A stretch of 59,615 bases of DNA from Patescibacteria group bacterium (GCA_038058475.1 JBBUAW010000007.1:1-59615); one strand, 5' to 3'. Numbered from the stretch's first letter, positions 5,936 to 28,978 are shown. Program-made: numbers and translations. The notes: generated by a model not told the origin, from the letters alone.

Positions 5936-5951
5936 AGTTTAAAATCCAATT

Positions 5952-7583: not shown

Positions 7584-7585
7584 TT

Positions 7586-7936
7586 ATGAAGCACGGTCAA
7601 CATCAACGAAAATTCGGCCGAAAAACGGACGTGCGCCGCGCGCTCCTGAAAGGTTTGGCGTTGGCGTTGATTGAACGCGGCAAAATTAAAACCACGGCGG
7701 CGAAAGCCAAATCACTCCGGCCGTTAATTGAAAAATTAGTTACCCGCGCCCGCCGGGGCGATCTGGCCAGTCAACGTTTAATCTTTTCACGCCTCGGCCA
7801 CTCGCCGGCCATTGTCAAATTTATCAAAGAAATCGGACCGCGTTACGCCAAGCGAGCGGGCGGTTACACCAGAATCAGTAAATTACCGGCGCGGACGAGC
7901 GATGGGAGTCCATTGGCGATTATTGAATTTGTGTAA
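7586..7936 (+). CDS. rplQ: 50S ribosomal protein L17
   Basis: MKHGQHQRKFGRKTDVRRALL...GGYTRI, typical L17; follows rpoA. Confidence 0.95.
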   Translation: MKHGQHQRKFGRKTDVRRALLKGLALALIERGKIKTTAAKAKSLRPLIEKLVTRARRGDLASQRLIFSRLGHSPAIVKFIKEIGPRYAKRAGGYTRISKLPARTSDGSPLAIIEFV

Positions 7937-7965
7937 CGAATGATCACGAATGGGGACGAATAAAG

Positions 7966-7971
7966 TATAAT
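7966..7971 (+). promoter_or_regulatory. -10 TATAAT 6 nt upstream of the rplM ATG
   Basis: TATAAT at 7966-7971, ATG at 7978, no SD. Confidence 0.45.
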
Positions 7972-7977
7972 AAACTA

Positions 7978-8343
7978 ATGAAAACGAATGAAAACAATTT
8001 AATAATTACCATTGACGCGGCTGGCGAGACGCTCGGTCGCGTGGCCAGTCGCGCGGCGGCGCATTTGCGCGGTAAAAATTCTCCCGCTTTTGAACGTCAT
8101 CAATTGCCGCGCGCCAAAGTTAAGATTGTGAACGCCGCCAAAGTCAAAATCACCGGCCGGAAACTGACGGATAAACTTTACCACCGGTATAGCGGCTATC
8201 CGGGCGGTTTGCGAGCGGAATCATTGGAACAGTTGCTGGCGCGGCGCGGCGCGGCGGAAGTTTTTCGTTTGGCGATCAAACGGATGTTGCCGGCCAATAA
8301 ATTGCGCGACCCGATTTTAAAAAATTTGACCGTGGAAAATTAA
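7978..8343 (+). CDS. rplM: 50S ribosomal protein L13
   Basis: IDAAGETLGRVASRAA..LRGK, YHRYSGYPGG, MLP.NKL, typical L13. Confidence 0.95.
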   Translation: MKTNENNLIITIDAAGETLGRVASRAAAHLRGKNSPAFERHQLPRAKVKIVNAAKVKITGRKLTDKLYHRYSGYPGGLRAESLEQLLARRGAAEVFRLAIKRMLPANKLRDPILKNLTVEN

Positions 8344-8360
8344 ATAAAAAAATCAAAATC

Positions 8361-8804
8361 ATGATTGCCAAAGAAAAAACCAAAACCAAAACCAAGACCA
8401 AAAAAGTTGCGAATGATCGTTATACCGAGGCAGTTGGTCGGCGAAAAACCGCCGTGGCTCGCGTCCGGATTTTTCCCGCCGGCAAAACCACCTGGATGAT
8501 TAACGGCAAAACTTTAGAACAGTATTTTTCAACTGGTGAATTGCAACAAATGGCGCGCGCGCCGTTGCTCTCGCTTAATCCGGCGGTCACCGTGCGATCG
8601 GAAGTCAAGGTGACCGGCAGTGGTATCGTCTCGCAAGCCGGCGCGGTCGCGCATGGTTTGGCGCGCGCCTTGATTAAAGAAGACGCCGCCCGCCGGCCAA
8701 TTCTAAAAAAAGCCCTTCTCCTTCGCCGTGATCCGCGAATGAAAGAACGGCGCAAATTCGGTTTGAAGAAAGCACGCAAGGCCCCGCAGTGGAGTAAGCG
8801 GTAA
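8361..8804 (+). CDS. rpsI: 30S ribosomal protein S9
   Basis: GRRKTAVARVR...GGG/GSG..SQAGAVAHG.ARAL...RDPR.KERRKFGLKKARKAPQWSKR; N-terminal (KT)n extension. Confidence 0.95.
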   Translation: MIAKEKTKTKTKTKKVANDRYTEAVGRRKTAVARVRIFPAGKTTWMINGKTLEQYFSTGELQQMARAPLLSLNPAVTVRSEVKVTGSGIVSQAGAVAHGLARALIKEDAARRPILKKALLLRRDPRMKERRKFGLKKARKAPQWSKR

Positions 8805-8880
8805 TTTCGTAATTCGTAATGTTGGTGTCTAGCCGCGATCGTGGCCAGATGTAAACATTGTTGAGCATCTAAACAAAAAA

Positions 8881-8909
8881 TTGACAGATTATTCATAATA
8901 TGCTAGCTT
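8881..8909 (+). promoter_or_regulatory. sigma70-like promoter TTGACA-N17-TAGCTT (TGc-extended)
   Basis: -35 at 8881-8886, -10 at 8904-8909; about 80 nt upstream of the ORF at 8992, which has a GGAG SD. Confidence 0.5.
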
Positions 8910-8991
8910 AAACAGCGGAAATCGAACTGGTGTTCGATCCCCAACCACGGGGCAAAAGTGGCCTAGGACCTTGTAATTCGGAGAACATGAA

Positions 8992-9546
8992 ATGAAACTT
9001 TTTAACGTTAGCGTCGCTCTCGGTAGTTTTGTTTTTGGATTAGTTATTGGCGTCTATCTCCCAATTTTCCCAGACACACCGAGAACTATCCCCGATGTGC
9101 AAACGTTTGTCACCAAACCACATCAACAAACAGTTCCTGAACTGGTTGTCGGCTACAATGGACCGGATGGTAAGCCGTTCGAGCTCGTCTATGATACCAA
9201 GAGCCGAAGGGTAATTCTGCGAGTGGACTCATCATCGGAGAGTTTTTTCAACGCAGATGAACTGGAACGACTCAAATCCGAGGTGGTGCGATTAATCTTG
9301 TCTGGCAAAACTTCACTCCCGCTAGGTGATAGTGGTATTTCCTTCCGATTTGCCGAAGGACAATATCCTATCTGGGGTCCACATGAAGAAGTTGGCCCGG
9401 GTTATAACTATAAGTCTCTGTTTTTTGCCGAGGGGGCGGCGATCAAAGACGGCATCATTGAGGCACAGGGACTTCCAAACAGACCTGGTCACTATTACCC
9501 ATACCCGCCAGATCTTTGGCCAAATTCTCAACCCGGTTCAAGATGA
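8992..9546 (+). CDS. hypothetical membrane-anchored protein
   Basis: 184-aa ORF with GGAGAAC SD and an N-terminal TM (VALGSFVFGLVIGVYLPIF); no family recognised; followed by a clean terminator. Confidence 0.6.
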   Translation: MKLFNVSVALGSFVFGLVIGVYLPIFPDTPRTIPDVQTFVTKPHQQTVPELVVGYNGPDGKPFELVYDTKSRRVILRVDSSSESFFNADELERLKSEVVRLILSGKTSLPLGDSGISFRFAEGQYPIWGPHEEVGPGYNYKSLFFAEGAAIKDGIIEAQGLPNRPGHYYPYPPDLWPNSQPGSR

Positions 9547-9587
9547 ACGGAGACGTTGACTTCCGTCATCCGTCACAATAAACTCAA

Positions 9588-9618
9588 GACCGCATGGTTC
9601 GCCGTGCGGTCTTTTTTT
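9588..9618 (+). terminator. rho-independent terminator
   Basis: GACCGCATGG-TTCG-CCGTGCGGTC hairpin followed by T7. Confidence 0.8.
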
Positions 9619-9640
9619 ATCTACAAACCAAATCAGAAGT

Positions 9641-9695
9641 GTCACTGGCAAGGAGAGTCCTTGCCAAGACTTGCCAAGAGTCCTTGCCAGTGGTC
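9641..9695. repeat. nested inverted/direct repeat element
   Basis: CACTGGCAAGGA ... TCCTTGCCAGTG form 12-bp arms. Inside are an internal copy of TCCTTGCCA and a duplicated CTTGCCAAGA. Two mutually exclusive hairpins are possible. Confidence 0.6.
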
Positions 9696-9808
9696 ATTAC
9701 ACCCTGATCTGCTTCGCCAATTCTCATAATATCAGTTTAGACGAAGCAATCAGGATGAGTTTTGATAAGGTGATGAAGAGGGATAGGGACAGATTTAATA
9801 AGGTCTAG
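9690..9808 (+). pseudogene. possible C-terminal remnant of a MazG-like NTP pyrophosphohydrolase
   Basis: Short frame ...LICFANSHNISLDEAIRMSFDKVMKRDRDRFNKV* resembles MazG-family C-termini. No N-terminal part or start codon is present. Confidence 0.3.
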
Positions 9809-9825
9809 ATTGCGCCAATTATTTA

Positions 9826-9834
9826 TGCTATAGT
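9826..9834 (+). promoter_or_regulatory. extended -10 (TGcTATAGT) 6 nt upstream of the hicB GTG
   Basis: TATAGT at 9829-9834, TG at 9826-9827, GTG start at 9841. Confidence 0.45.
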
Positions 9835-9840
9835 CGTTCT

Positions 9841-10092
9841 GTGTCTAAAGAATTTGAATATAAAATTGAATACGAGGTTGATAAAGAAACAAATCAAATT
9901 GTGGCGACTATCCCAGAATTAAATCATATCTCATCGTTCGGCGATTCTTTCGCTGAAGCTGAAGCCAATGTCCGAGAGGCGGCTCTCGGTTATCTAGAAG
10001 TTCTGGTAAGGGAGAAAAAAGAAATTCCGAAACCGGCCTTTCGTACCGAGGGTACCTATCTTAAAATCCTGGTATCTAAAACTGCCTCATAA
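9841..10092 (+). CDS. hicB: HicB-family antitoxin
   Basis: 83 aa, GTG start. HicB-like N-terminal fold sequence (VATIPELNHISSFGDSFAEAEANVREAALGYLE). A 3-nt gap separates it from hicA. Confidence 0.8.
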   Translation: MSKEFEYKIEYEVDKETNQIVATIPELNHISSFGDSFAEAEANVREAALGYLEVLVREKKEIPKPAFRTEGTYLKILVSKTAS

Positions 10093-10095
10093 GCG

Positions 10096-10323
10096 ATGGG
10101 TAAATTAGGCAGACTGCCGGTCAGAAAAGTTATTCAGAAACTAAATAAAGCCGGTTTCGTAGAAACCCATCGTCGAGGCAGCCACATCTATCTTAAAAGT
10201 GGTGACGGTGAAAGATTTGTTACTGTGCCGGCTCACGGCTCTAAAGATATTCCTATCGGTACGCTCTATAATATCGTTGTCCGGCAAGCTGGTTTGTCTG
10301 TAAATGAGTTCAATAATTTGTAA
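10096..10323 (+). CDS. hicA: HicA-family mRNA interferase toxin
   Basis: 75 aa; YcfA/HicA pattern (KVIQKLNKAGFVETHRRGSHIYLK...VTVPAHGSKDIPIGTLYNIV). Confidence 0.88.
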   Translation: MGKLGRLPVRKVIQKLNKAGFVETHRRGSHIYLKSGDGERFVTVPAHGSKDIPIGTLYNIVVRQAGLSVNEFNNL

Positions 10324-10924
10324 AATCAGAAATGGAAATCTAATTTTTGTGTTTGACAAACCCCCTCTCTTTCCTGTAGTAATAAGCTCGGAAAGTGGCA
10401 ATGGGCCACTGATCATTGTCAACGGCCGTAGTGAGCCAGTCCTTGAAAGGAGAATCACGGTGGTAAAAAGAATCAGTATCACTTTGGCGCCATACCTGCA
10501 AAGGTATATCGCCAATCATAAAGGTAAGGTCGACGATCCGCTGTGGAAGTCTATCGGCACCGCTCTGCGAGTTCCGGCTGACATTGTTTCCATTCTGGTA
10601 GACGATCTTAGCCGTGGTGCGCGCTTCCCGTACGATATTGCGCCACCAAAGACCAGCGGGCACATGAAGGAGTTCCAAAGTTGTTGTTCTCGTGAACTTT
10701 TTTCCACCCAGCAAAAAGCAGGTGCTGGCTCATGTGACTGTGAAAGTGGTGGACGGTGAACCAACGATTGATTTTGTTGAGTGGCGTTGTTGAGAAACTG
10801 CGACCACAGATGGAGATCGTTTACGATCTTTTGTCGCAAGCGCTCGGCAAATAGTGAATTTGTTCGTCCTGTGTTTATGCGCTTCGATAACTATCGGGGC
10901 GCCTTTTTCTTTGGGGTAATTTTG

Positions 10925-10933
10925 TGATAGATT
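10925..10933 (+). promoter_or_regulatory. extended -10 (TGaTAGATT) in front of the ncRNA candidate
   Basis: TAGATT at 10928-10933 with TG at 10925-10926; the predicted start is about 10940, just before the 5' arm of the closing helix. Confidence 0.4.
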
Positions 10934-15883: not shown

Positions 15884-16534
15884 ATGTCTGATCTGCTTGC
15901 CGTTTTGACGATGGTGGTCGGCGCCGGCCTTTTACTCTTTATCCGGTTTTGGCAGAGCCGCCGGCGGAGCCGGCACTGGCTGGCCGATCTTCTCACCGCG
16001 CTCGGCCTCGTCGCGCTGATGGCCGCGGCGCTCGGCTGGCTCGGCCGCTTGCCTTGGTGTGATTGCGGCTACATCAATCTCTGGTACGGCGACGCTTACG
16101 GCAGTCAAAACTCGCAACATTTATTTGATCCTTACACTTTCACCCATCTGCTCCACGGTCTCGGTTTTTATTTCTTGCTCTGGCTCATTCTGCCGCGGCG
16201 CGTGCCGTTTGTCTGGCGATTGTTGATGGCGGTCGCGCTGGAGGCGAGTTGGGAAGTAGTGGAAAATACCTCGCTGGTGATTGAATATTATCGCGCGGTC
16301 ACCGCTTCACTCGGTTACTATGGCGACACGATTATTAACTCGCTCGGCGATATCGCGACGATGAGCCTGGCTTTTATCTTAGCCGCCCGTTTTCCCGCCT
16401 GGATCAGTGTGGTCATTTTTGTCGGCATTGAAGTCTTGTTTTTGATTTGGATTCGCGATAACTTGACTCTCAATATCTTGATGCTCCTTTACCCGATTGA
16501 ATCAATTAAGCTTTGGCAGGTTGGCATTGGGTAG
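15884..16534 (+). CDS. multi-pass membrane protein, DUF2585/UPF0314-like
   Basis: Motifs CDCGYINLWYG...SQHLFDPYTFTHLLHG and SWEVVENT recall the UPF0314 family. Assignment is from memory, not searched. GC-rich. Confidence 0.5.
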   Translation: MSDLLAVLTMVVGAGLLLFIRFWQSRRRSRHWLADLLTALGLVALMAAALGWLGRLPWCDCGYINLWYGDAYGSQNSQHLFDPYTFTHLLHGLGFYFLLWLILPRRVPFVWRLLMAVALEASWEVVENTSLVIEYYRAVTASLGYYGDTIINSLGDIATMSLAFILAARFPAWISVVIFVGIEVLFLIWIRDNLTLNILMLLYPIESIKLWQVGIG

Positions 16535-16561
16535 TATCCTGTGTTATAATAACGAGACATT

Positions 16562-16909
16562 ATGAGAAATTTTTTATACGTCATTATCGCGGTCATCGTC
16601 GCGGTTTCCGCAAATTCAATAAGCGCTGTCTGGGCAAAACCAGAGAATAAATTCTCAATCTGGCTCTTGGCCGTTATTCTTATTTCCCCATTAGTTTTTA
16701 TCACTTATGGGTTTGTCACTTCTAGAATCGGCGTGGCGCTGGCTTCCAGTGTGATTGATTCTTTGATGATTATCGGGTCAATTATAGTCGGCCTCTTTTT
16801 CTTTAATGAGTGGAATAAAATCCTAGGACTCCAGTATCTTGGAATGGGGCTCGCTGTTCTCGGTGTTCTATTAATCATCTTCTCTCCCTACCTGACATTC
16901 ACGAAATGA
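16562..16909 (+). CDS. small 4-TM transporter-like protein (SMR/EamA-half-like)
   Basis: 115 aa with four hydrophobic helices; no TM1 glutamate of EmrE type; stop overlaps the next start (ATGA). Confidence 0.6.
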   Translation: MRNFLYVIIAVIVAVSANSISAVWAKPENKFSIWLLAVILISPLVFITYGFVTSRIGVALASSVIDSLMIIGSIIVGLFFFNEWNKILGLQYLGMGLAVLGVLLIIFSPYLTFTK

Positions 16910-18714
16910 ATCCGTATAAAAACGATAAATCATTCTTGGAACCGATTGATTTTTCTTCCGTCAATGAAACATCCTTGGCATTTGCAGACTATCTCACCGC
17001 CCACTTTGAAGAAATTGCGGACATCCTGCTTGAATATGAGAGCTTTGAAGTGGTCAAGGATGAGTTTAATCGGACCATTGACCTTTTTAGAAATCTTTAT
17101 GAAAACAAAGACTATTTTATTCTTCGCGTTAATGATATCACAGCTTTTTTACCCAGAAATCAACCGCTCTACGCCTTTTCTTGTTTCGTTGCCGTGCCGT
17201 CTCTGATGGCGCGCGAGGTGCATTTCCGCATTCCGCACAGTATGCGCGGCTTTTTCTCGAAATTACTCCAAACACTTAAAATAAAAGAATTTTTTCCCAA
17301 TATTATTATTTCAAAAAAAGAAAGATTAGAATTCTTAAAAGAGCGGTCGGCGCTTCTCATGGACCCTAAAAATACCAATAGTTTGCCGATAACCGACGCA
17401 GTTGTTTTTACCGGAACTCCCCACCATGCAGAACGTCTTCGTTCAATTTTTGACACCCGAACATTGTTTATTGCCAATGGCGCCGGACATAATCCGGTTA
17501 TAGTCTCGATTGATGCTGATATACAAAAGACCGTAGAAGCGACACTTAAACTCCAATTATACAACCAAGGACAGGATTGTGCCGCGCCCAATGCGATTTT
17601 AGTCTATCAGAATGTTTATCAGCCGTTTTTGCATTCATTGCGTGCCGAATTGGCAAAAGTGAAAATCGGCCCATATCGCGACCGGTCTTGCCGAGTCGGC
17701 CCGATCAGCGATCCTGAAGATCTGAAACGGATTGGGGGGTTTATTGTTGATAATCAAGTTTGGCTTGACCCGAGCACCAAGGGAGTGATTCGGACAGCCG
17801 AAACAATTGTAGAACCGACGATTATTTGCAAACCGCTGAAAGAGGGAGGAAATTATTCGGAAATTTTCGCGCCAATCATTTTTGTCCAGAAATACGAAAA
17901 AGATGCCGATCTGGCTTTATATTTTGAAAATCAGCAATACGCCCGAAATGCTATGTATGTTACTTTGTATGGCGACAGTAAATATATCAGAAATCTTATT
18001 GGAAAAAAAATTGGGGGGAAAATACTGCATCACAAAGAAACTTTTCTTCATAATACTCACTTGCACGCGCCGGGAGTGGAGCGGGGGACGCAGCCCTACG
18101 GGGGTTACGGTTACGGCGCGTCAAGCATCAGCATTAACGGCAAAATTATGCCAAAACCGACTTGTCCCCAGCGAGACATTTATGAACACCTGGTGAAGCC
18201 CTTGATTAAATCGGAAAAAATAAAAGAGTATAAAGATAGATTGTCTCGGTTGACTAAAAAAGTAACCAAGAATATCCCCAAACTGATGGGACTTAAACTG
18301 AATACGCCAGCCGTTCAGAAAGAAATAAATACCGGGAAAAGCTATTTGGATTTTTTGAGCATTAAAAAAATAGGTCGACGGTATGTGGAATTATCGGCCA
18401 AACAAATGTTTCTGCTTCGGGAACACGCGGACTCCGAGTTGATCGCCCGACTGGAAATGGAAGATAAAAAACAGATTCAAATTTTGCGAAAATTTTTAAT
18501 GAATCGCAAAAGGATTGATTTGGGCGAATTTACCACCTTTCTTTATTCAATTTCAAAAAAACCGGGACTTTCGGCGGCGGGAAATCGCCACCGGCAATTG
18601 CATTTTTTCCACAATATTTATCAACTTCTTTTCGGCAAAAAATCGGGGCCGCGGCTAGCCCAATTCCTGCTTGACACCGACCGGCAAAAAATTTGCGAAC
18701 TTTTGGATGTTTAA
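16906..18714 (+). CDS. aldehyde dehydrogenase-superfamily enzyme fused to a class-I aaRS-type C-terminal helical (tRNA-binding-like) domain
   Basis: ALDH landmarks PRNQPL, FTGTP, GQDCAAPN (Cys nucleophile) and EIFAPI. ELGG is replaced by ANGAGHNP. The tail HFFHNIYQLLFGKKSGPRLAQFLLDTDRQKICELL parallels the GltX/LysRS-I C-terminus. Confidence 0.6.
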   Translation: MNPYKNDKSFLEPIDFSSVNETSLAFADYLTAHFEEIADILLEYESFEVVKDEFNRTIDLFRNLYENKDYFILRVNDITAFLPRNQPLYAFSCFVAVPSLMAREVHFRIPHSMRGFFSKLLQTLKIKEFFPNIIISKKERLEFLKERSALLMDPKNTNSLPITDAVVFTGTPHHAERLRSIFDTRTLFIANGAGHNPVIVSIDADIQKTVEATLKLQLYNQGQDCAAPNAILVYQNVYQPFLHSLRAELAKVKIGPYRDRSCRVGPISDPEDLKRIGGFIVDNQVWLDPSTKGVIRTAETIVEPTIICKPLKEGGNYSEIFAPIIFVQKYEKDADLALYFENQQYARNAMYVTLYGDSKYIRNLIGKKIGGKILHHKETFLHNTHLHAPGVERGTQPYGGYGYGASSISINGKIMPKPTCPQRDIYEHLVKPLIKSEKIKEYKDRLSRLTKKVTKNIPKLMGLKLNTPAVQKEINTGKSYLDFLSIKKIGRRYVELSAKQMFLLREHADSELIARLEMEDKKQIQILRKFLMNRKRIDLGEFTTFLYSISKKPGLSAAGNRHRQLHFFHNIYQLLFGKKSGPRLAQFLLDTDRQKICELLDV

Positions 18715-18716
18715 GA
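18615..18716 (+). repeat. direct repeat 'a' (3' end of the ALDH-fusion gene), copy 1
   Basis: About 102 bp, near-identical (2-3 mismatches) to 21073-21174. Confidence 0.9.
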
Positions 18717-18738
18717 TCATTACAAATATATCCATCTT

Positions 18739-19230
18739 TTAATCCTCGCAGACAAAAACCATCTTTAAAGTTTCCGGCAGATTTTTGTTATTTGGATATT
18801 TTATAATCTCAGACTTTTTGAAACCAGACTTTTCGTAAGCCCTGATAGCTCTCGCATTGTTGGGGCGGACCTCCAGATAAATTTTATTAATATCAAGCCC
18901 TTGCGCTTTCTCTAGCATTTTTTTTATAGCGATTGTTCCGTAACCCCTGTCTCGGTATTCTTTTTCTCCTATAATAATTTGTGTCTCATACCAGGCGGAT
19001 TTGCGTTTAACAAATGATATGTGTCCGATGATAGTTTTGCCCACGGTGATAAGAAAATGATAAGCGCTTTTTTCACCAGTAACTATCCGAGAAAAATATT
19101 TTTCTATTTTTTGGTCGGCAATGCGGCGCAGTATACCGCTGGTTAAGGTAAGCAGTTCCTTATCTCTCCACCACTTGGTGAAATATTTTTTGTCACCCGG
19201 GACGATTTTTCGTAATTTTAGTCTGTCCAT
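18739..19230 (-). CDS. GNAT-family N-acetyltransferase (RimJ/RimL-like)
   Basis: Acetyl-CoA motif EYRDRGYGTIAIKKMLEKA and ARAIRAYEKSGFK. Start set at MDRLKLRKI (19230). The track start 19332 would read through a terminator hairpin. Confidence 0.8.
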   Translation of the reverse strand: MDRLKLRKIVPGDKKYFTKWWRDKELLTLTSGILRRIADQKIEKYFSRIVTGEKSAYHFLITVGKTIIGHISFVKRKSAWYETQIIIGEKEYRDRGYGTIAIKKMLEKAQGLDINKIYLEVRPNNARAIRAYEKSGFKKSEIIKYPNNKNLPETLKMVFVCED

Positions 19231-19276
19231 AAATAAAAACGAGGCTAAGAGAAGTATAACACTTTTCTTAGCCTCG
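19231..19276 (-). terminator. rho-independent terminator between the rSAM and GNAT genes
   Basis: Perfect 11-bp stem CGAGGCTAAGA/TCTTAGCCTCG with a 15-nt loop, followed on the minus strand by TTTTTATTT, which abuts the GNAT ATG. Confidence 0.7.
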
Positions 19277-19356
19277 CGTACCACCATCCCAGTGTGTTTT
19301 AGTGGCAGTTGCTGGGTCGTTGACAAGTGCAAAGCACTTTTAGTTTTGGCAACGAC

Positions 19357-20859
19357 CTAACCCTGATAATCGACTGTTGCCCTCGTTTTTTTCGTTTGGG
19401 TATCGTTTTCTGCATAATACTCACCCCCTTCTTTTGCAGTTTGGAGAAATTCTGGCTCTAACACCATCGCTTCCCGCAGTTGTTCTCGAAGAATCTCTTG
19501 AGTCATTCGACGGTAGAAATCACACATCCTTTCGATCTTGGCGGTTTTAGTTGCTCGAGCAAACTCTTGTGTGATATTACAACCGCCGGCGCATTGTCCC
19601 TCGATCATGCATCCTTTGCACATCTCCATTACGCCAGTGAGATGATCTCTCACGAAACAATGATAAGCGGCGCCGGGCGCGTGGAACGATTGGATTTCCG
19701 AAAGATTGCCGAGTTGAGTCGTGCTATAACTACATCCGTAAATATTTCCGGACGGGCCTACGCACATGCTGTTGCCGCGAACTGCGCCGCAAAACGCCAC
19801 GCGACTCTCCAGTGTAAATTCGTTAAGATTTTCAGCCGGTCGAGACCAGAAACCAGGAACATCGACACCTTTTGCTGCCGCATAGCGCCGGATGCTCATC
19901 AGTTTCGTGACAACCCCCTCCACCGGAATTTCTACCATATTGACTACATCAATATCGATTCTGATATTCTTCATGCCACGGGCTATCGCCCAATCGATAA
20001 TTGACTCATCAAGCTGGTGAAAATTATTTTCGGTGACTGTCACCGCAATGCCATCGAGCGGGTATCTCGCCTGAGCCAACGCATCGAATCCACGCATGAT
20101 CTGGAGAAATGTACCGTCTCCGGACTTTGTCAGTCGTACACGATCATTTTCCTCACGCGAGCCATCGAGACTGGAAGCGATCTCAACGCCATACTCTTTG
20201 AGGGTCGCGGCGATCTCCGGCATGATAAGCGAAGCGTTTGTATTGATCGAGAAACGGAATTCGAACTCCGAGCTGTAGGTGGCATGACAATATTCAAGCA
20301 CTTGCTTAATCACGGACCATACTAGCAGTGGTTCGCCTCCACCGAAGTTGATTTCGGCGGTACTCTTTCCGTGCCCGCGAAGAATCTCGAGATACCGACC
20401 CACCGTTTCTTTAGCTGTTTCGAACCGCATAAACTTTTTTGGATTGTTGATACGGTCGGAAGTTTCCAAGTTGTTGAAATGGATGCAGTAGGTGCAACGG
20501 AAGTTGCACGCCTCGCTCATGATGAGTTCAAAATAGTCAATCAGCGAACCGCTGATAATTTCTGCTTCGCGCCCCTTCATCTTCTCCTCAAGAAATGCTC
20601 GATCATCAAAATCCTCGGTAACGAGAAAATAACATCGTAATAATTCCTCAATCGCTTCCCGATCTTCCTCAGTCAGTTCATTGCCGAGTTGTAAACAAAT
20701 CGTTGTTGGTTTCGAAAACAACTCTATAAATTCTAGCGTCTCGGCAGGAATAATTTTTGGGTAACCAAACAACGAGTGCCAAATTACTGCGCAGTCGCTA
20801 TTCCGGACGACTTGCAAGAACGGTGACTTCACATATACGGCATTGAAATTAATTTCCAC
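19357..20859 (-). CDS. radical SAM / SPASM-domain maturase with N-terminal RRE(PqqD)-like domain
   Basis: CNFRCTYC (CxxxCxxC) about 115 aa from the N-terminus. C-terminal auxiliary-cluster Cys motifs CGAVRGNSMCVGPSGNIYGC and CKGCMIEGQCAGGC. GTG start with AAGGA SD. Confidence 0.88.
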   Translation of the reverse strand: MEINFNAVYVKSPFLQVVRNSDCAVIWHSLFGYPKIIPAETLEFIELFSKPTTICLQLGNELTEEDREAIEELLRCYFLVTEDFDDRAFLEEKMKGREAEIISGSLIDYFELIMSEACNFRCTYCIHFNNLETSDRINNPKKFMRFETAKETVGRYLEILRGHGKSTAEINFGGGEPLLVWSVIKQVLEYCHATYSSEFEFRFSINTNASLIMPEIAATLKEYGVEIASSLDGSREENDRVRLTKSGDGTFLQIMRGFDALAQARYPLDGIAVTVTENNFHQLDESIIDWAIARGMKNIRIDIDVVNMVEIPVEGVVTKLMSIRRYAAAKGVDVPGFWSRPAENLNEFTLESRVAFCGAVRGNSMCVGPSGNIYGCSYSTTQLGNLSEIQSFHAPGAAYHCFVRDHLTGVMEMCKGCMIEGQCAGGCNITQEFARATKTAKIERMCDFYRRMTQEILREQLREAMVLEPEFLQTAKEGGEYYAENDTQTKKTRATVDYQG

Positions 20860-20932
20860 GGCAGTTTCCTTTCCATGTAATGTAAAGGTGCTATTACTTG
20901 AACCCCCCGCGAAGTTTCAAGGTTACTAATAC

Positions 20933-21072
20933 CACCTTATACCCACTCGACATTTTGTCAAGACGAAAAAATTTTGCTAGAATCTCAATAATGAACTCTT
21001 TTAAAAACAAAATTAATATACTGGCTTGGGTGACGATTATCGGAGGAACGATTGCCGTGGTGGCGGTATCGT
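20933..21072 (+). repeat. direct repeat 'h' (histidine-kinase promoter and first ~27 codons), diverged copy
   Basis: The first 52 bp are identical to 23651-23702. The coding part is only partly identical to the real kinase 5' end (roughly three-quarters by eye), with many synonymous differences. Confidence 0.9.
20955..20983 (+). promoter_or_regulatory. duplicated promoter TTGTCA-N17-TAGAAT
   Basis: Identical to the kinase promoter; -10 ends 7 nt before ATG 20991. Confidence 0.55.
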
Positions 21073-21116
21073 TATTTATCAACTTCTTCTCGGCAAAGAA
21101 TCGGGGCCGCGGCTAG
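20991..21116 (+). pseudogene. chimeric 41-codon ORF (kinase N-terminal TM fragment fused out of frame to the ALDH-gene 3' end)
   Basis: MNSFKNKINILAWVTIIGGTIAVVAVSLFINFFSAKNRGRG*; junction at 21072/21073 within the microhomology TATTTATCAAC. Confidence 0.6.
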
Positions 21117-21174
21117 CCCAATTCCTGCTTGACACCGACCGGCAAAAAATTTGCGAACTTTTGGATGTTTAGGT
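21073..21174 (+). repeat. direct repeat 'a', copy 2
   Basis: Matches 18615-18716, including the gene's last codons and stop region. Confidence 0.9.
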
Positions 21175-21205
21175 GAATCCAAAAAATTACCAGTAATAGT
21201 GAAAT

Positions 21206-21856
21206 ATGGACGAAATAAAAATTCAGGAAAATCGCGAAAAAGATTCTATAAGAAAATACTGGTTTGGATACCTAGCGCATAATTTTGTAGTTAAAAAACT
21301 GTTTGCGTTATCGTCCAAACGATTACAAAACAGAATAGTGAGTTTGGTCGTCGGTACACCAAGAAGTATTCTCGATACATCGTGCGGAGACGACGACTTA
21401 ATAGTCAGAATTTGTCGAAAATTCGGAGCGAGCATCTGTATTGCCAACGACCTTTCTCCCCAATTAACATCTTTTATCAATGATACCGGAGTAATTTTGA
21501 GACGCACTAATTTTAATATATTATCCCAACCCTTTGTCAATAAATTTGATCTTGTTGTCTGTAAAAATACTCTTCACCATATACCCAAAGACTACCAGGC
21601 CAATCTGATTGGTTATTTATTGAAAATATCGCGTCAACTAATAATCGTTGACATTGAGAACCCAAAAAACAGCAGCATCAGAGCGAGAATCTGGAATTGG
21701 TATTATCGGATCATCCTTGGGGACAAGAGCGATTATTTTTTAGATTTCGAAGAGTTTCAATCAACCCTTTCGTCTGCTGGAAACCAATTTACTTTTGGCA
21801 AATTTCCGACAATGAAAGGAGATTATATGTATGGTGTCACCACTAAAGAAACTTAA
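21206..21856 (+). CDS. class I SAM-dependent methyltransferase
   Basis: Motif I variant ILDTSCGDDDL and post-II DLVVCKNTLHHIP; AT-rich; 3' end overlaps the convergent CYTH gene by 14 nt. Confidence 0.7.
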   Translation: MDEIKIQENREKDSIRKYWFGYLAHNFVVKKLFALSSKRLQNRIVSLVVGTPRSILDTSCGDDDLIVRICRKFGASICIANDLSPQLTSFINDTGVILRRTNFNILSQPFVNKFDLVVCKNTLHHIPKDYQANLIGYLLKISRQLIIVDIENPKNSSIRARIWNWYYRIILGDKSDYFLDFEEFQSTLSSAGNQFTFGKFPTMKGDYMYGVTTKET

Positions 21857-22457
21857 GATCGGACTCCAGTCTCGCGTAATCTTCTCTGGATCCAGAAAAA
21901 ACCCAATCTACTTTTTTCGTCAACCTTTTACATAAGTCATTAAACTGATCTTTACCCATGGGCAACAAATCAAACTCACTTAATATTCTCCCTAACCGCC
22001 CTCGCTCCTGCTCGATTAATTTTTCATCCTCAGTGTTTATCATTTTTTCTATTTCTATGTAAGATATAGGTCCGGCGTTGACTGACGCAATTTCATAATC
22101 ATCTTTTTTTGAAACAAAACGTGTTGTTTGTCGCCGCATAACCTTAGAATCAAAACCCAGTGCGTTGAAGATTTTAACGAAACCTAAAAACTGTTCTAGT
22201 TTGATTTGTTGAATCACTTCCATCCGGTCATGGGTATGAAAGTCGCCTCGTTTTAGAACTACCTCCGAGTATTTTTTTGAATTGGTTCTTACCCTGATGT
22301 CATAATTTATATTATTTATGGTACCGAGAAACAAAACCGAGATTCTGTTTTCAGATGAACTCAATACAAATTGAGAAATAATTTTTTTTTCGACAAGCTC
22401 TCGTTTTTCTTCCGGTATTTCTGACCTCAACTCAATTTCTTTGTTTATTAAACTCAT
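21843..22457 (-). CDS. CYTH-domain protein (triphosphate tunnel metalloenzyme / CyaB-like)
   Basis: N-terminal EIELR (ExExK-type) and C-terminal YIEIE motifs, about 200 aa, AT-rich. Confidence 0.65.
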   Translation of the reverse strand: MSLINKEIELRSEIPEEKRELVEKKIISQFVLSSSENRISVLFLGTINNINYDIRVRTNSKKYSEVVLKRGDFHTHDRMEVIQQIKLEQFLGFVKIFNALGFDSKVMRRQTTRFVSKKDDYEIASVNAGPISYIEIEKMINTEDEKLIEQERGRLGRILSEFDLLPMGKDQFNDLCKRLTKKVDWVFSGSREDYARLESDLKFL

Positions 22458-22463
22458 AGCGCC

Positions 22464-22472
22464 ATACTATCA
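22464..22472 (-). promoter_or_regulatory. extended -10 (TGaTAGTAT) 6 nt upstream of the CYTH ATG
   Basis: Minus strand reads TGATAGTAT-ggcgct-ATG(22457). Confidence 0.45.
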
Positions 22473-22486
22473 CAATTTGAATGTAC

Positions 22487-22515
22487 AAAAAAGAGCGACC
22501 TGCCTTAGGTCGCTC
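22487..22515 (-). terminator. rho-independent terminator after the Tmk-like gene
   Basis: GAGCGACC/GGTCGCTC 8-bp stem, followed on the minus strand by T6. Confidence 0.8.
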
Positions 22516-22535
22516 ATTGAGTGTGATTTTTCGTC

Positions 22536-23084
22536 TTACAAATCGATAGCCTTGACCACGATTTCGGCGCAGGCTTCCGGTGAAAACCTTTGAGTGTCAA
22601 TCATCACGAATGGCAGATTGAACTCTAATGCGTTTTTATAAAACAGAGTTGTGATTTCGCGTTGGATATCAAGCACTCGTCGATCCCCCGCAGACAATCC
22701 CCGATGCATCATTCTCTCTGCTTGAACTTCGTAATTCAGAGAGAGAATTACTGTCAGCGTCGGTGTGACGACAGAAAGAAAATCGTTTGCTGGCACTACG
22801 ACCCCCATTGCTTGGTGATAGGTGTAAGTCGAGAGCCAATACCGATCCGAAACGATTTTACCGCCGTTGGCTAAGATGGACCCAATCTCCTCGGAGGCGT
22901 CATAAATGCCATCCCGGTAAAATTTATAGTGTTCTTCCGGCGGCGAACTCTTGTCCACTCGTTCTCGAATTACGAGATACTTCCTAGGTGGTGTGGCATA
23001 AGCTACAGCTCCCAATTTTTTTGCCAGGATTGGGCAGAGTGTGCTTTTACCACACCCGTCCGCGCCCTCTATGACAATGAACAT
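22536..23084 (-). CDS. thymidylate kinase-family nucleotide kinase (divergent)
   Basis: P-loop IVIEGADGCGKST and DRYWLSTYTYHQ (the DRY..S..AYQ motif of Tmk). The region after the P-loop is atypical (AYATPPRKY). Confidence 0.7.
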   Translation of the reverse strand: MFIVIEGADGCGKSTLCPILAKKLGAVAYATPPRKYLVIRERVDKSSPPEEHYKFYRDGIYDASEEIGSILANGGKIVSDRYWLSTYTYHQAMGVVVPANDFLSVVTPTLTVILSLNYEVQAERMMHRGLSAGDRRVLDIQREITTLFYKNALEFNLPFVMIDTQRFSPEACAEIVVKAIDL

Positions 23085-23087
23085 GTT

Positions 23088-23567
23088 TTACCTCCTTTCC
23101 CATTGAACGTTCAAAAGTAACAATCTTTTTCTTTTGTCGCCGATAGTTACTTCTACAATATCACCGATTGTGATGCCTAACACAGCTTGGCCAAGCGGTG
23201 CCATATAGGATACACTAGTCCCGGTATTATCGAAGATCATAGCACTACCGACACGAAAACTCTTTTCCTCGCCCGTATCCAGGTATTTGACTGTAACAAG
23301 ACAACCAATTCTCACCTTACCATCTGTTGGTAATGGGGTATATTCAACGAGTGAAGCCTCCCTCCTAACCAACAGGAGTTGTCGTAAATGATTTGACCAC
23401 ATTGCTGCTGCTCTTTGACCTTCCTCATAGCCTGGATTGTCATGTGAAGTTTCTGCTCCCTGTTGGCAACTCTCTCCGATTTCCCGCAAGGCCTTCTCGA
23501 TCTCCTTCTTTGTTTCTTTAATCTTACGATCGAGCGTTTCCAGATCCTCCTTCAAGAAATATCCCAT
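23088..23567 (-). CDS. GreA/GreB-family (Gre/Rnk-like) factor
   Basis: N-terminal coiled coil with tip ETSHDNPGYEEG (compare GDLSENAEY) and a C-terminal Gre FKBP-like domain (RIGCLVTV..L.TGEE..F.V). GGAG SD. Confidence 0.7.
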   Translation of the reverse strand: MGYFLKEDLETLDRKIKETKKEIEKALREIGESCQQGAETSHDNPGYEEGQRAAAMWSNHLRQLLLVRREASLVEYTPLPTDGKVRIGCLVTVKYLDTGEEKSFRVGSAMIFDNTGTSVSYMAPLGQAVLGITIGDIVEVTIGDKRKRLLLLNVQWERR

Positions 23568-23650
23568 ATTTTAAATCTCCTAGGGTCGTTAGACCGATTT
23601 TCTACTCAAGCCGGCCACTGATTTTCAAGGTACCAACCTTTCACTCCATA

Positions 23651-23790
23651 CACCTTATACCCACTCGACATTTTGTCAAGACGAAAAAATTTTGCTAGAA
23701 TCCCAATAATGAACCCTCGTAAAAACAAAATAAATGTCTTGGCCTGGATAATTATTATTGGCGGGACAATCGCTGTGGTGGTGGTATCAT
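23651..23790 (+). repeat. direct repeat 'h', resident copy (bidirectional promoter and kinase 5' end)
   Basis: See 20933-21072. The upstream ACCTTGAAA (-35 of the leftward promoter) is also shared by both copies. Confidence 0.9.
23673..23701 (+). promoter_or_regulatory. kinase promoter TTGTCA-N17-TAGAAT (TGc-extended), 7 nt before the ATG
   Basis: -35 at 23673-23678, -10 at 23696-23701, ATG at 23709. Confidence 0.6.
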
Positions 23791-25253
23791 TTATTTTATA
23801 TCAACACACGGTGAATCTTCTTACTGGCAATCTGCGGCAACGGATTGAGAGTATTGCGCGAACTGCCGTTCCCGCCTTTGATCCAAAAGATATTAAGGAA
23901 TTACAAACAGAACCTGATTGGCAGAAGCCGGAGTGGAGCAGGGTGGTAAATCAATTGTTGGCCATTGAGCAGAGTCATATCGACATTCTTTTCGCCTACA
24001 TTTTTAGAAAAGATCCCAACGATCCAAATCAAATGAATTTTGTGGCGGACTCCCATTCAATAAATCCATACGCCAACACCGATGACGATCCGACAAATGA
24101 TGTTGACGCTAATCGAGACGGTGTTATTGAGCCGGATGGAGCTGATTATCTACAGTGGCCCGGACAAGATTACGAACCCCCTCCGGAAGGAACTTTTAGG
24201 GCGTATGAAGTTGGTCCCACCACCAGTAAAGAATTATATGAAGATTCATTCGGGCGTGTGATTACCGGCTACGCTCCAATCGTGAGTAACGGAGAGACAA
24301 TCGCGGTGCTGGCGATTGACATAAAAGCCGATGATTTTTTTACTATTACGCGGCAAACCCTTTATCCGTTTTTAAGTTTTATTTTTTTCCTTATTCTTAT
24401 CATTTTATTCCTCTTCTATTTTATTATCAAAATGTGGGGTAAGCAATTAAAGAAGGAAGTGGCACATGTGGAACAAGTTGAAGGTCTGGTGAGCGAATTA
24501 AATAAAACTAACGATAAACTCTGGGCGGCTAATGACAAACTGCAAGAGCTGGACAAACTAAAAACGGAATTCGTATCAATGGCGACGCATCAATTGCGGT
24601 CACCGCTGACGGCAATCAAGGGTTACGCGTCAATGTTGCTGGAAAATTCGTTCGGGCCGGTGGAAACAAAAGCGCGCGGGGCGATGGAGATTATTTTTCA
24701 ATCCAGTCAAAAGTTGGTTCATGTGATTGAAGATTTTCTCAATATCACGCGGATTGAACTCGGCACGATGAAATATGAAAAAATCCAGTTTGATTTCAGT
24801 TCTCTGGTGAACAATGTCGTGACGGAATTAAAACCGAACATTGAAAAACGCCGACTCAAGTTTTCGGTGGAAGTGGCGCCGAAAGTCAATTTTCACGTAA
24901 CCGGCGATTCGGGGAAGCTGTCGCAGGTGGTTAGCAATTTGATTGATAATGCGATTAAATATACGCCGCCGCTTTCAACCGGCGGCGAACCTGGCACAAT
25001 TCGGATTTTACTCGATCGCGTTAAAGAAAAAATTCGACTGGTGGTGGCGGACAACGGCGCCGGCATTCCGGCCGCAACGATTCCAAAATTATTCCAAAAA
25101 TTCATTCGCGCCGACGACGCCGGTAAATTAAACATCACCGGCACCGGTCTCGGCCTTTATGTCGCCAAGCAAATTGTAGAAGCGCACAACGGCAAAATCT
25201 GGGCCGAGTCGGACGGCCCGGGCCGCGGCAGTCGGTTTGTGGTGGAGGTATAA
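23709..25253 (+). CDS. sensor histidine kinase with extracytoplasmic domain
   Basis: H-box MATHQLRSPLTAIKGY, N-box NLIDNAIKYTP, G-boxes DNGAGIP and GTGLGLYVAK. Two TMs flank a roughly 200-aa domain. No response regulator is adjacent. Confidence 0.9.
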   Translation: MNPRKNKINVLAWIIIIGGTIAVVVVSFILYQHTVNLLTGNLRQRIESIARTAVPAFDPKDIKELQTEPDWQKPEWSRVVNQLLAIEQSHIDILFAYIFRKDPNDPNQMNFVADSHSINPYANTDDDPTNDVDANRDGVIEPDGADYLQWPGQDYEPPPEGTFRAYEVGPTTSKELYEDSFGRVITGYAPIVSNGETIAVLAIDIKADDFFTITRQTLYPFLSFIFFLILIILFLFYFIIKMWGKQLKKEVAHVEQVEGLVSELNKTNDKLWAANDKLQELDKLKTEFVSMATHQLRSPLTAIKGYASMLLENSFGPVETKARGAMEIIFQSSQKLVHVIEDFLNITRIELGTMKYEKIQFDFSSLVNNVVTELKPNIEKRRLKFSVEVAPKVNFHVTGDSGKLSQVVSNLIDNAIKYTPPLSTGGEPGTIRILLDRVKEKIRLVVADNGAGIPAATIPKLFQKFIRADDAGKLNITGTGLGLYVAKQIVEAHNGKIWAESDGPGRGSRFVVEV

Positions 25254-25262
25254 TTTAGAACG

Positions 25263-25796
25263 ATGAATTCAAAATATTTTTGGTTGTTTTTCCTCATTTT
25301 TGTCATCATTGGCGGTATTTTTTATGTGTCGGATAAAAATATTCACCAAACAGACGTTAATAATTGGCCGGTTTACCGGAATGAAAAATATGGTTTTGCG
25401 GTGAAATATCCGCCGGGGTGGGGGTTTTCGGAAGCGACCGAAGAACCGGAAGCCGGGAGAGAAGGTCCCAGATTTAAAACCCATTATATTATTTTTGGTA
25501 AAAATGGTTATAAAACTCCCGAGATTGAACTTTCTCACCAAAATCAATTAGAGATTTTTGAAGAAGATATTCAAGAAATTTTAAGATTCTTTATTGAAAC
25601 TGGGCATGAGCCGCGTTATCTGAAAACAGGTGAAGAAATACATAACGGAATTACAATGATGAAATACCATTCTAACTTACCGACTGACGATAAAGACTTT
25701 TTTTATATTTTTCAAAAAAATGGCATTGTTTATGTTTTCCACACTCTCGGTATTTTTGCCGAACCAATGCTTGATTCATTTGTCTTTTTGAAGTAA
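25263..25796 (+). CDS. hypothetical membrane-anchored protein
   Basis: 177 aa, N-terminal TM, no family recognised; 9 nt after the kinase stop. Confidence 0.55.
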   Translation: MNSKYFWLFFLIFVIIGGIFYVSDKNIHQTDVNNWPVYRNEKYGFAVKYPPGWGFSEATEEPEAGREGPRFKTHYIIFGKNGYKTPEIELSHQNQLEIFEEDIQEILRFFIETGHEPRYLKTGEEIHNGITMMKYHSNLPTDDKDFFYIFQKNGIVYVFHTLGIFAEPMLDSFVFLK

Positions 25797-25878
25797 GTGC
25801 GCGATAATTTGTCCTGGAGGTTTTGACGAACAGTTCGTCGGAACATTTTTTGTTCTTTGCACAAATGAGGAGACAGTG

Positions 25879-27130: not shown

Positions 27131-28978
27131 ATGGCAAAAGATTTTGAAGTTTGGCTGGCCGGATTGATTGTAATCGCGCTGGGCGTTCACTACACCGGCG
27201 CGGCGCCGAAAGTTTTGGCCGATTGGTTAATACTGGCCGCGGCTTTGTTCGGCACGGCGCCGGTACTCGTCAGCGCCGCGCGCCAGCTTTGGCGCCGTGA
27301 AATTTCAATGGATCTGCTTGCTTCGGTCGCGTTAATTTTTTCGCTCTTAAGTCAAGAGTGGACATCGGCCGCTTTCATCGCCTTAATGTTGGTCGCCGCG
27401 CGTTTTTTACAAAAAATTACCGAGCGCCAAGCGGAGCGAAGTATTAAAAGTTTGCTTAAGTTGCGGCCGAATTTAGCCAATCGAATTAACCGCGGTCAAT
27501 TAGAAACAGTGTCAATCAATCAATTATCGGCTGGCGACACAATCATTGTTGATTTAGGGGAAAGAATTCCGGTGGACGGCGTCATTAGTTCGGGCGCAAT
27601 CACGGTTGACGAGTCGTCGCTTACCGGCGAATCGCTACCGGTGGAAAAAAATATCGGCGCTAAAGTTTTTAGTTCGACCATCCTAGTTTCCGGCAGCGCC
27701 CAGATCATTGTTGAAAAAATTGGTCGCGACACGACTTTGGAAAAAATCATCGCGCTGGTGGAATCGGCCGGCCAACATAAACCGCGTTACCAAACTATCG
27801 GTGAACGATTTGGAAAAATTTATTTAATCGGCATTTTTTTGGTTTCCGGTTTGGTTTTTTATCTGACGCAAAATACTTCGCTGGTGTTATCAATCGTGCT
27901 GGTGGTTTGCGCCGACGACGTCGCCGTGGCCGTGCCGCTCGCGTATTTAGCCGCGACCCGGGCCGCCGCGCGGCGCGGCGTGATCATCAAAGGCAGTAAT
28001 TATTTGGAGGCGCTCGGCGATGTGACCACAATCGTTTTTGATAAAACCGGCACTTTGACGACCGGACAATTGCAATTGGTGGAAATTGTTCCGCTGGCGC
28101 CTTGGACCAAACATAACATCTTGGCTTACGGCGGCGCGCTGGCCGAACAATCCAAACACCCGATTGCGAAAGCCGTCGTCGCTTACGCGCAAGCGGAAAA
28201 AATTCAATTGGCCTTGGCCGAGCGCGTGGAAGAGCTCGGCGGTTTGGGTTTAGTCGGCGCCAGCGGCGGCCAAGAAATTATTTTCGCGCGCGGCGCCTTA
28301 ATGACGGCCAGAAATATTCGCGGTTTTGAATTATTGCAATCGGAAATTGACCGCTTGGAAAACGAAGGAAAGAGTCTGACTTATCTCGCGATTAACAATA
28401 AACTTGCCGGTCTATTGGCTTTTACCGACCAGATTCGGCCGGAAACAAAAAAAACGATTGATCAATTGCATCAATTAGGCATCAGGCGCACTGTAATGTT
28501 GACGGGCGACAACCAACGGGTGGCCAAAACCGTCGCCAACGCCAGCGGTATTAAAGAAGTTCACTCGCAACTTTTGCCCGGGCAAAAAGTTGAACATCTA
28601 AAACATTATTTGACCACCGACCGGACGGTGGCGATGGTGGGCGACGGCATCAATGACGCCGCGGCTTTGCGCGGCGCGACGGTCGGTATCGTCCTCGGCG
28701 CCATCGGTTACGACGTAGCGATTGAGTCGGCCGATATTGTTTTGATGCGCGATCAGATTTCTAAAATTCCCGAATTAATTAAATTGGCGCGGTTTGTAAA
28801 ACGGATTGCGTTGCAAGATTTTGTTTTGTGGGGCATTTCCAACATTCTTGGTTTAAGTTTGGTTTTCAGCGGGGTGATCGGGCCGGCCGGCGCCGCGGCT
28901 TACAATTTCATCACTGATTTTTTCCCATTGTTTAATTCTTTGCGCGCCGGCCGAAAACAACATGGCAAAAATTCTTGA
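27131..28978 (+). CDS. P1B-like P-type ATPase without N-terminal metal-binding domain; atypical TM motif CAD instead of CPC
   Basis: TGES, DKTGTLT, MLTGDN and GDGINDAAAL are present. The ion-path helix reads LVVCADDVAVAVPLA where CPx is expected. Confidence 0.85.
   Translation: MAKDFEVWLAGLIVIALGVHYTGAAPKVLADWLILAAALFGTAPVLVSAARQLWRREISMDLLASVALIFSLLSQEWTSAAFIALMLVAARFLQKITERQAERSIKSLLKLRPNLANRINRGQLETVSINQLSAGDTIIVDLGERIPVDGVISSGAITVDESSLTGESLPVEKNIGAKVFSSTILVSGSAQIIVEKIGRDTTLEKIIALVESAGQHKPRYQTIGERFGKIYLIGIFLVSGLVFYLTQNTSLVLSIVLVVCADDVAVAVPLAYLAATRAAARRGVIIKGSNYLEALGDVTTIVFDKTGTLTTGQLQLVEIVPLAPWTKHNILAYGGALAEQSKHPIAKAVVAYAQAEKIQLALAERVEELGGLGLVGASGGQEIIFARGALMTARNIRGFELLQSEIDRLENEGKSLTYLAINNKLAGLLAFTDQIRPETKKTIDQLHQLGIRRTVMLTGDNQRVAKTVANASGIKEVHSQLLPGQKVEHLKHYLTTDRTVAMVGDGINDAAALRGATVGIVLGAIGYDVAIESADIVLMRDQISKIPELIKLARFVKRIALQDFVLWGISNILGLSLVFSGVIGPAGAAAYNFITDFFPLFNSLRAGRKQHGKNS

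Follow-up and report, generated by a model that had tools for sequence, protein, structure and literature searches.

Two cassettes joined by a scar of both flanking genes at an insertion hotspot in a groundwater Patescibacterium

The minimal mobile element, defined in Neisseria in 2007 work summarised in PMC3787668, is described there as a set of variable genes between two conserved flanks, without mobility genes, with differing cassettes in close relatives, empty sites in others, and exchange presumed to follow transformation, by homologous recombination in the flanks. A second described process, homology-facilitated illegitimate recombination (HFIR), was reported in 2002 and by Meier and Wackernagel in 2003 (cited in PMC6382021); in that account, joints of 3-10 bp form beside a homologous anchor in transformable bacteria. 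Here we describe a locus in a groundwater genome of the Patescibacteria (candidate phyla radiation, CPR) that recalls both. The window, by which we mean the whole stretch of DNA that was analysed, is 59,615 nt long (Patescibacteria group bacterium, GCA_038058475.1 JBBUAW010000007.1:1-59615), and coordinates count from its first letter. Between a gene for an aldehyde dehydrogenase-like (ALDH-like) protein and one for a sensor histidine kinase, it carries two different gene cassettes separated by a 240-bp scar built from pieces of both flanking genes. In having variable genes between conserved flanks without mobility genes, and differing or absent cassettes in relatives, the ALDH-kinase locus is like the minimal mobile element as summarised, and the same route of exchange may apply to it. 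We consider it likely that the structure is a real chromosomal one, in which two alternative cassettes of one hotspot were added one after another.

The locus begins with the 3' end of the ALDH-like gene (repeat a), followed by a GNAT acetyltransferase and a radical SAM/SPASM (rSAM) enzyme (together cassette 1, C1), the scar (h'a'), a methyltransferase, a CYTH-fold protein, a thymidylate kinase-like (Tmk-like) protein and a GreA-like protein (together cassette 2, C2), and the kinase with its upstream region (repeat h). This is the layout that the original prediction, made by reading the sequence, had proposed, and its gene labels also held when all were checked, most of them by Pfam and CYTH by fold. 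Repeat a covers 102 bp at the 3' end of the ALDH-like gene, with the stop codon included (18615-18716, plus strand), and alignment bears out its predicted recurrence as a' (21073-21174, plus strand): 18615-18734 aligns with 21073-21192, similarity ends at the ALDH stop codon, and no exact stretch is longer than 73 bp. The 99 bp of ALDH coding sequence hold 2 mismatches, giving the non-synonymous changes F576L and K579E, and the stop is changed from TAA to TAG. Repeat h was likewise found again where it had been predicted, at 20933-21072, with 20933-21073 and 23651-23791 being 85% identical. Its 52-bp core is an exact match (20933-20984 = 23651-23702), as had been claimed, and has no further copy elsewhere in the window. 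To the left, homology continues more weakly, across a 10-bp indel, as far as ∼20893/23600, so the repeat is longer than was first stated and spans nearly the whole intergenic region (20893-20990 in h', 23600-23708 in h, both plus strand) together with 27 kinase codons (23709-23790 in h). The two pairs are the longest direct repeats of the window, and chance is therefore not an issue. Two other direct repeats were seen, one of 46 nt (89% identity, 28624-28669 and 54352-54397) linking a P-type ATPase gene with a site 25.7 kb away, possibly a paralogue, and one of 45 nt (91%, 49803-49847 and 50480-50524) with copies 677 bp apart.

The two halves of the scar meet at an 11-mer, TATTTATCAAC (21073-21083), which is exact in a (18615-18625) and partial in h. 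A microhomology present in both parents had been predicted here. This stands for a; at the equivalent place in present-day h (23797-23805) there is only TATATCAAC/TATCAAC, and since the true h' parent is not in hand, the microhomology is 5-11 nt long and not demonstrably 11. The predicted chimeric 41-codon open reading frame (ORF) lies across the joint (20991-21116, plus strand), and a gene caller working on an independent contig also called it (L002 13697-13822). Its codons 1-27 derive from a diverged kinase allele and encode the transmembrane N-terminus of the kinase, and the a' part, read out of the ALDH frame, adds 14 new residues.

How can such a structure be told from an assembly artefact? 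An assembler might have merged two strain haplotypes, or a chromosome and a small circle, through the a or h repeats; the merging of haplotypes is an alternative that the original prediction had itself raised. We made the comparison on assembled contigs found by exact look-up of the ALDH-like, rSAM and Gre-like proteins. The structure is present in at least four separately assembled samples (ERZ1292635, ERZ1292638, ERZ1292626 and ERZ1292640); a Logan contig of ERR3858116 was also found by the look-up, and across a-C1-h'a'-C2-h all of these contigs are 99.99-100% identical to the window. Wherever contigs resolve the repeats, the phasing is the same, with ALDH-a beside C1 and h'a' beside C2, in all four assemblies. 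No more than 11 nt of the h'/a' joint match either parent, so a k-mer (de Bruijn) graph cannot create it and it must exist in the reads. The 52-bp h core is shorter than the common final k and is resolved by k >= 55; the 73-bp exact run of a and a', however, exceeds k=55 and leaves the artefact some room, as do contigs that end inside the repeats (L023 at 18659; L025 at 21142 and 23680), although true repeats break a graph in the same way. The Logan contig (k=31) stops within both repeats, as true repeats predict. Coverage, at only 5-7x by the contig names, also favours the artefact, and the names do not separate cassette from flank, since the two contigs of ERZ1292638 at 5.46 and 5.42 both mix the two. 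The same can be said of SPAdes contig NODE_2261 (ERZ1292638), which indicates some graph complexity: within the Tmk-like gene of C2 it diverges from the window at 22936, a branch that may come from a minor variant or a contig-end chimera. The last 81 nt of NODE_2261 (L002 15643-15723) look like a tRNA 5' half, and its sister contig NODE_35530 begins at 22942. If the repeats were paired otherwise, there would be a chromosome with one cassette and, beside it, a circle of 2458 or 2718 bp. Contigs give this no support: the exact-protein look-ups turned up neither an alternative pairing nor a single-cassette contig with identical proteins. With identical assemblies in hand and homology at the joint too short for graph chimerism, we regard an artefact as very unlikely.

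The ALDH-kinase gap, normally ∼15 bp wide, is a lineage-specific insertion hotspot. The original prediction had proposed a variable locus bounded by a and h and had called for this interval to be compared in relatives, and the comparison agrees with it. The gap is estimated at 14-111 bp in ∼31 species-representative genomes and ∼34 metagenome contigs, and at 14-15 bp in lineages with 72%, 70% and 66% ALDH identity. Occupied gaps cluster in the nearest relatives, at 73-82% identity, and their content is different each time. The 73% lineage (L005-L010) has a 1432-bp insert (e.g., L008 5342-6773); the 77% genome (L030) has a gene for a 214-aa protein and a GNAT gene, followed by the contig end; and the 82% lineage (L029) has DUF6624, MvdD-type ATP-grasp and GNAT genes ahead of the kinase, where a contig end (L004) interrupts the link to the ALDH-like gene. 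In L035, a genome less closely related, the insert measures 946 bp. None of the occupied loci of these single-insert relatives carries flank duplications, and the scar belongs to the two-cassette state. A 113-119-aa ORF, the 602-aa ALDH-like protein and the kinase form a tightly packed conserved trio across Patescibacteria (loci L011-L069 and L113-L188).

Because the cassettes are exactly bounded by repeated sequence, and a C1 homologue lies in the opposite orientation in another lineage, one might think of a site-specific system, integron-like or invertible, using the 52-bp core or a segment of a as its attachment site. We rejected this as highly improbable. No integrase, transposase or other recombinase was found within ∼10 kb on either side (precomputed Pfam tables, with the cassette proteins also scanned), and there are no significant inverted repeats at the cassette borders. 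The repeats are fragments of the flanking genes and not dedicated sites, the core occurs in the window only in its two copies, and the single-cassette relatives are without such repeats. A mobile-element origin was rejected as well, as the cassettes have no DNA similarity to phages or plasmids.

Both cassettes have an ancestry of their own. A C1 homologue occupies the same gap in L005-L010, where the rSAM protein is 80% identical to window residues 3-247 and the GNAT protein of L008 is 59% identical to that of C1. Compared with window 18739-20873, this copy is inverted, so that it runs in the direction of the flanks, and only the N-terminal 248 aa of its rSAM protein are left, the C-terminal half being lost; it is probably decaying. 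C2 is a conserved four-gene module, found on a small number of metagenomic contigs elsewhere. Just six homologues of its 204-aa CYTH-fold protein were found, and two of the three contexts read (L110 and L111) share the order Gre-Tmk-CYTH with a convergent methyltransferase gene, the third (L112) being a related but rearranged module. C2 is collinear with L110 and L111 at 68% DNA identity, exactly from methyltransferase start to Gre start, and its methyltransferase is 64-68% identical to theirs. In L110 (2111-4583) the module is divergent from a seven-transmembrane histidine kinase that has a different N-terminal domain. The 52-bp core can be aligned with the Gre-upstream region of L111, including a minus-strand TTGACA-N14-TATAA element, and the core is accordingly a piece of the divergent promoter region associated with such modules. 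Each cassette is joined on one side to a homologous copy of the kinase-proximal intergenic region, ∼35 bp upstream of its first gene, and on the other to an ALDH stop codon, and these matching borders give the pair the look of alternative alleles of one locus. The prediction of two alternative occupants is upheld by these homologues. Next to the L110 module there is also an operon (4580-10926) whose genes include ones like those for ThiF, nitroreductases and aromatic-amino-acid lyases, a neighbourhood suggesting that the module acts in a small-molecule or nucleotide-related pathway.

Identity between the repeats is uneven, at 98% for a and a', 100% for the 52-bp core and 76% for the first 27 kinase codons. 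Over those codons, 20 of 82 positions separate h from h', 12 of the changes being synonymous and 8 non-synonymous (pS 0.615, pN 0.13), and the synonymous excess is significant against neutrality (binomial p=6e-4). The divergence of the h coding part (24%) is far above the 2-3% of a and a' (Fisher p=2e-5) and is like the distance to another lineage's kinase, since the L029-lineage kinase is 78-82% identical to either copy. Change that is mainly synonymous means that h' diverged within a working kinase and not as a decaying local copy. An origin of h' in a diverged functional kinase allele under purifying selection, as first predicted from the mostly synonymous differences, is thus supported by the substitution pattern. 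Which of h and h' is the ancestral copy is not decided by the kinase 5' ends of relatives, to every one of which both are about equally distant. The a' variants L576 and E579 also occur in functional homologues such as that of L035.

This pattern excludes a simple tandem duplication followed by neutral decay, which also fails because only the ends are shared: the C1 and C2 proteins show no mutual similarity, and there are no further repeats between the units. A more elaborate form would have one cassette duplicated in tandem, from 18615 to kinase codon 27, after which a foreign C2-kinase segment replaced the right-hand copy, one crossover lying in a' and the other in the kinase or farther on. 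Tandem duplications classically leave a head-to-tail joint at a short microhomology, such as h'/a', and the near-identity of a' to a is what a local copy predicts. However, the units have nothing in common between their flanks, a duplicated single cassette is seen in no relative, and the identity of the 52-bp core would still have to be explained by conservation. Two events are needed, and tandem duplications are unstable. We therefore hold duplication and replacement to be improbable.

The minimal explanation for two cassettes added in succession would be that two alleles of the locus underwent one illegitimate join and one homologous exchange. Through the 5-11 nt microhomology, codon 27 of the kinase in one allele would have been linked to the ALDH-like gene of the other, 102 bp ahead of its stop codon, and the other end of the exchange would have been ordinary homologous recombination. 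With no integrase and no transposon, the joint points to recombination between diverged alleles by one homologous and one microhomology-mediated crossover. The route that we favour is HFIR after DNA uptake, in which one incoming end is anchored by homology, the other is joined at a microhomology of 3-10 nt, and foreign DNA is inserted; the geometry here looks like that of the account given in PMC6382021. The anchor may have lain in the ALDH-like gene, if C1 was incoming, or in the kinase, if C2 was, with the free end joining at the microhomology. The 98% identity of a and a' makes the ALDH-like gene a credible anchor, and the joint lies in TATTTATCAAC, as set out above. Within this lineage the cassettes differ between strains or species and are probably swapped by homologous recombination in the conserved flanks. 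Competence (com) genes are reported as conserved throughout CPR, with natural transformation demonstrated in Saccharibacteria (PMC10633639).

The original prediction had suggested another route, the integration through h of a circle excised from another strain. Spelled out, a linear or excised fragment a'-C2-h from another strain was circularised at the microhomology and then entered by a single crossover in the 52-bp h core; equivalently, a C1 circle would have integrated through a. The end product would be unchanged, with another order of steps. It would account for the exactness of the core, both flanks of which have diverged, as at a homologous crossover, and for the direct repeats that bracket each cassette as in a Campbell-type integrate. 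Yet 52 bp (or the 73 bp in a) is short for RecA, neither a circular form nor a replication or recombinase gene was seen, and the route asks for an extra end-joining step in a group not known for nonhomologous end joining. Its final sequence is the same as that of HFIR and does not distinguish the two. We take integration of a circle to be unlikely, though of some weight.

Several points tell against successive addition as a real chromosomal event. All of the supporting assemblies come from one well (Hainich aquifer H43) and so from one population, and to this must be added the low coverage and the branch at 22936. The parental alleles (a/C1/h'-kinase and a'/C2/h-kinase) were found in none of the collections searched: looking up the exact rSAM and Gre-like proteins gave nothing but the concatenated arrangement, and a metagenome scan gave nothing with the single protein and only more distant loci with the alignment query. 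For the ALDH-like protein and the kinase, the best homologues reach 82-83% identity, and the nearest relatives are only ∼80% alike. The weakest point of single-event models is the uneven identity, since one event needs both a mosaic donor and a mosaic recipient, or else a later short gene conversion. The parents would be recognised by their marks, parent 1 by a kinase starting MNSFKNKINILAWVTIIGGTIAVVAVS adjoining C1, and parent 2 by an ALDH-like gene ending ...LLLGKESGPRLAQ...V-TAG adjoining the methyltransferase.

The scar may also have consequences for expression. A promoter-like TTGTCA-17-TAGAAT with a TG extension (23673-23701 in h, 20955-20983 in h') stops 7 nt short of the ATG in h and h' alike (sites 23673-23711 and 20955-20993). 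No Shine-Dalgarno sequence precedes the kinase, which is probably read from a leaderless mRNA. A bidirectional promoter, as first predicted, is plausible. Detection of sigma-70-like sites gave the TTGTCA-17-TAGAAT site on the plus strand only; a minus-strand TTGACA-N14-TATAAG was seen by eye and is kept upstream of the Gre-like gene in L111. The h' copy would drive the 41-codon ORF and probably the methyltransferase gene 89 bp downstream, whose transcription in a single-cassette allele would have come from the ALDH operon. The intergenic copy in h' also lies upstream of the rSAM and GNAT genes on the opposite strand.

The left flank of the locus opens with a 115-aa ORF (16562-16909, plus strand), which precedes the ALDH-like gene in all relatives (113-119 aa) as the left member of the trio, and for which family searches gave no match. 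The 602-aa ALDH-like protein itself (16906-18714, plus strand; Pfam Aldedh 7e-25) has >450 full-length homologues in Patescibacteria. Its N-terminal ∼430 aa have ∼40% identical homologues in Pseudomonas, Photorhabdus, Xenorhabdus and actinomycetes, and its C-terminus is weakly like that of class I lysyl-tRNA synthetase (TIGR00467 1e-7), which explains the odd name "lysyl-tRNA synthetase" in some sources. On the right, the 514-aa kinase (23709-25253, plus strand; Pfam HisKA and HATPase_c) is the other conserved flank. The C-terminal 58% of this kinase (∼24450-25253) is 70-79% identical to 545-551-aa Patescibacteria kinases (P0146, P0147, P0220 and P0231) that carry another N-terminal domain (PF16927), and most ALDH-linked kinases are ∼50% identical to the catalytic half of the window kinase; the 70-79% identity hints at a past kinase domain swap.

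In C1, the GNAT acetyltransferase (18739-19332, minus strand; Pfam Acetyltransf_3 3e-16) is called at 163-182 aa on public contigs. The 500-aa rSAM/SPASM enzyme (19357-20859, minus strand; Pfam Radical_SAM) resembles maturases of ribosomally synthesised and post-translationally modified peptides, with a PapB-like NCBIfam match (3e-39) that is under all family cutoffs, and no convincing Cys-rich small ORF that might be its precursor peptide was found across 18700-21210. C2 begins with the class I SAM methyltransferase (21206-21856, plus strand), whose Pfam hits are weak and near threshold. The 204-aa CYTH-fold protein (21843-22457, minus strand) had no match in Pfam and PDB sequence searches. 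An AlphaFold (AF2) model built from seven homologues has a pLDDT of 90, and Foldseek matches it to triphosphate tunnel metalloenzymes (TTM) and class IV adenylate cyclases (E 4e-8 to 1e-5, TM 0.6-0.7; 2een_A 4e-8, 7ns9 5e-7). The motifs EIELR, DIRVR, EVVLK and ISYIE.E are kept among homologues. An eight-stranded tunnel fold with an N-terminal ExExK and charged residues along the tunnel is expected in CYTH/TTM proteins, whereas this one has EIELR, with R replacing K, and on the model it belongs to CYTH/TTM by fold only. The Tmk-like P-loop kinase (22536-23084, minus strand; Pfam Thymidylate_kin 4e-19) matches PADLOC PDC-M51B (1e-30) and the viperin-associated kinase VakA (4e-16). C2 was considered as a known defence system and set aside, because PADLOC matched the Tmk-like protein alone and no system could be assigned. 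The GreA/GreB-like protein (23088-23567, minus strand) has a Pfam GreA_GreB match of 1e-11 and an NCBIfam greA match of 3e-14, below cutoff.

The ALDH-like gene, both cassettes, the kinase and a downstream gene for a 177-aa protein have a G+C content of 35-48%, compared with 50-54% in the neighbouring DnaK, DnaJ and ATPase genes (16500-25800). The ALDH-like gene is below the local average in relatives as well, so low G+C is partly a property of the gene family and not of insertions. Further upstream, a HicB/HicA toxin-antitoxin pair lies at ∼9841-10323, ahead of grpE-dnaK-dnaJ; these positions were converted, with an offset of +6905, from 2936-3418 in the genes listed for the identical public contig L001.

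Patescibacteria have tiny genomes and few recognisable mobile elements. Gain and exchange of accessory genes in CPR are poorly documented, and the locus is a concrete natural example with the recombinant joint preserved. The 73- and 52-bp exact direct repeats could later delete either cassette. It is tempting to go further and see the scar as a functional two-cassette switch, free of mobile elements and resolvable by RecA, with the promoter rewiring both cassettes and the 41-residue membrane peptide under selection; we find this doubtful. If it were true, an a/a' crossover would leave only C2 in the genome and an h'/h crossover only C1, and a CPR population could keep, shed and re-acquire accessory modules (possibly for defence or peptide modification) by transformation alone. 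Natural competence, recently shown in the group (PMC10633639), fits recombination between alleles without integrase or transposon. For metagenomics the locus is a caution that duplicated flank fragments resemble strain-merging artefacts yet can be real. The finding opens no new question, and the mechanism itself is known from model bacteria, so its interest is moderate.

How, then, does the locus stand beside the systems with which we began? By analogy, it behaves like minimal mobile elements and the mobility-gene-free hotspots of other bacteria: its flanks are adjacent in relatives, it is without integrase, transposase or att-type repeats, and four different gap contents are seen (C1 with C2 in the window; the inverted C1 homologue in L005-L010; DUF6624, ATP-grasp and GNAT in L029; and the 214-aa protein with GNAT in L030). 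Unlike the minimal mobile element as PMC3787668 summarises it, two alternative cassettes coexist here with an internal scar of both flanking genes, and the host is an uncultivated Patescibacterium in which exchange by transformation is a supposition. HFIR, in the account of PMC6382021, is known from laboratory transformation; here it is proposed from a natural product without its parents, with a joint that may reach 11 nt and with 102 bp of the anchor gene duplicated.

The nearest parallel for the two-cassette state is the tandem accretion of genomic islands, familiar from composite islands at tRNA genes and from defence-island hotspots between core genes, in which successive insertions leave direct repeats and units can be lost by recombination. 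The scar is alike in this. It differs in having no integrase and no att site, its repeats being truncated copies of core genes that were illegitimately joined. Altogether, the locus adds a new, well-preserved case of a known process from a group that has been little studied.

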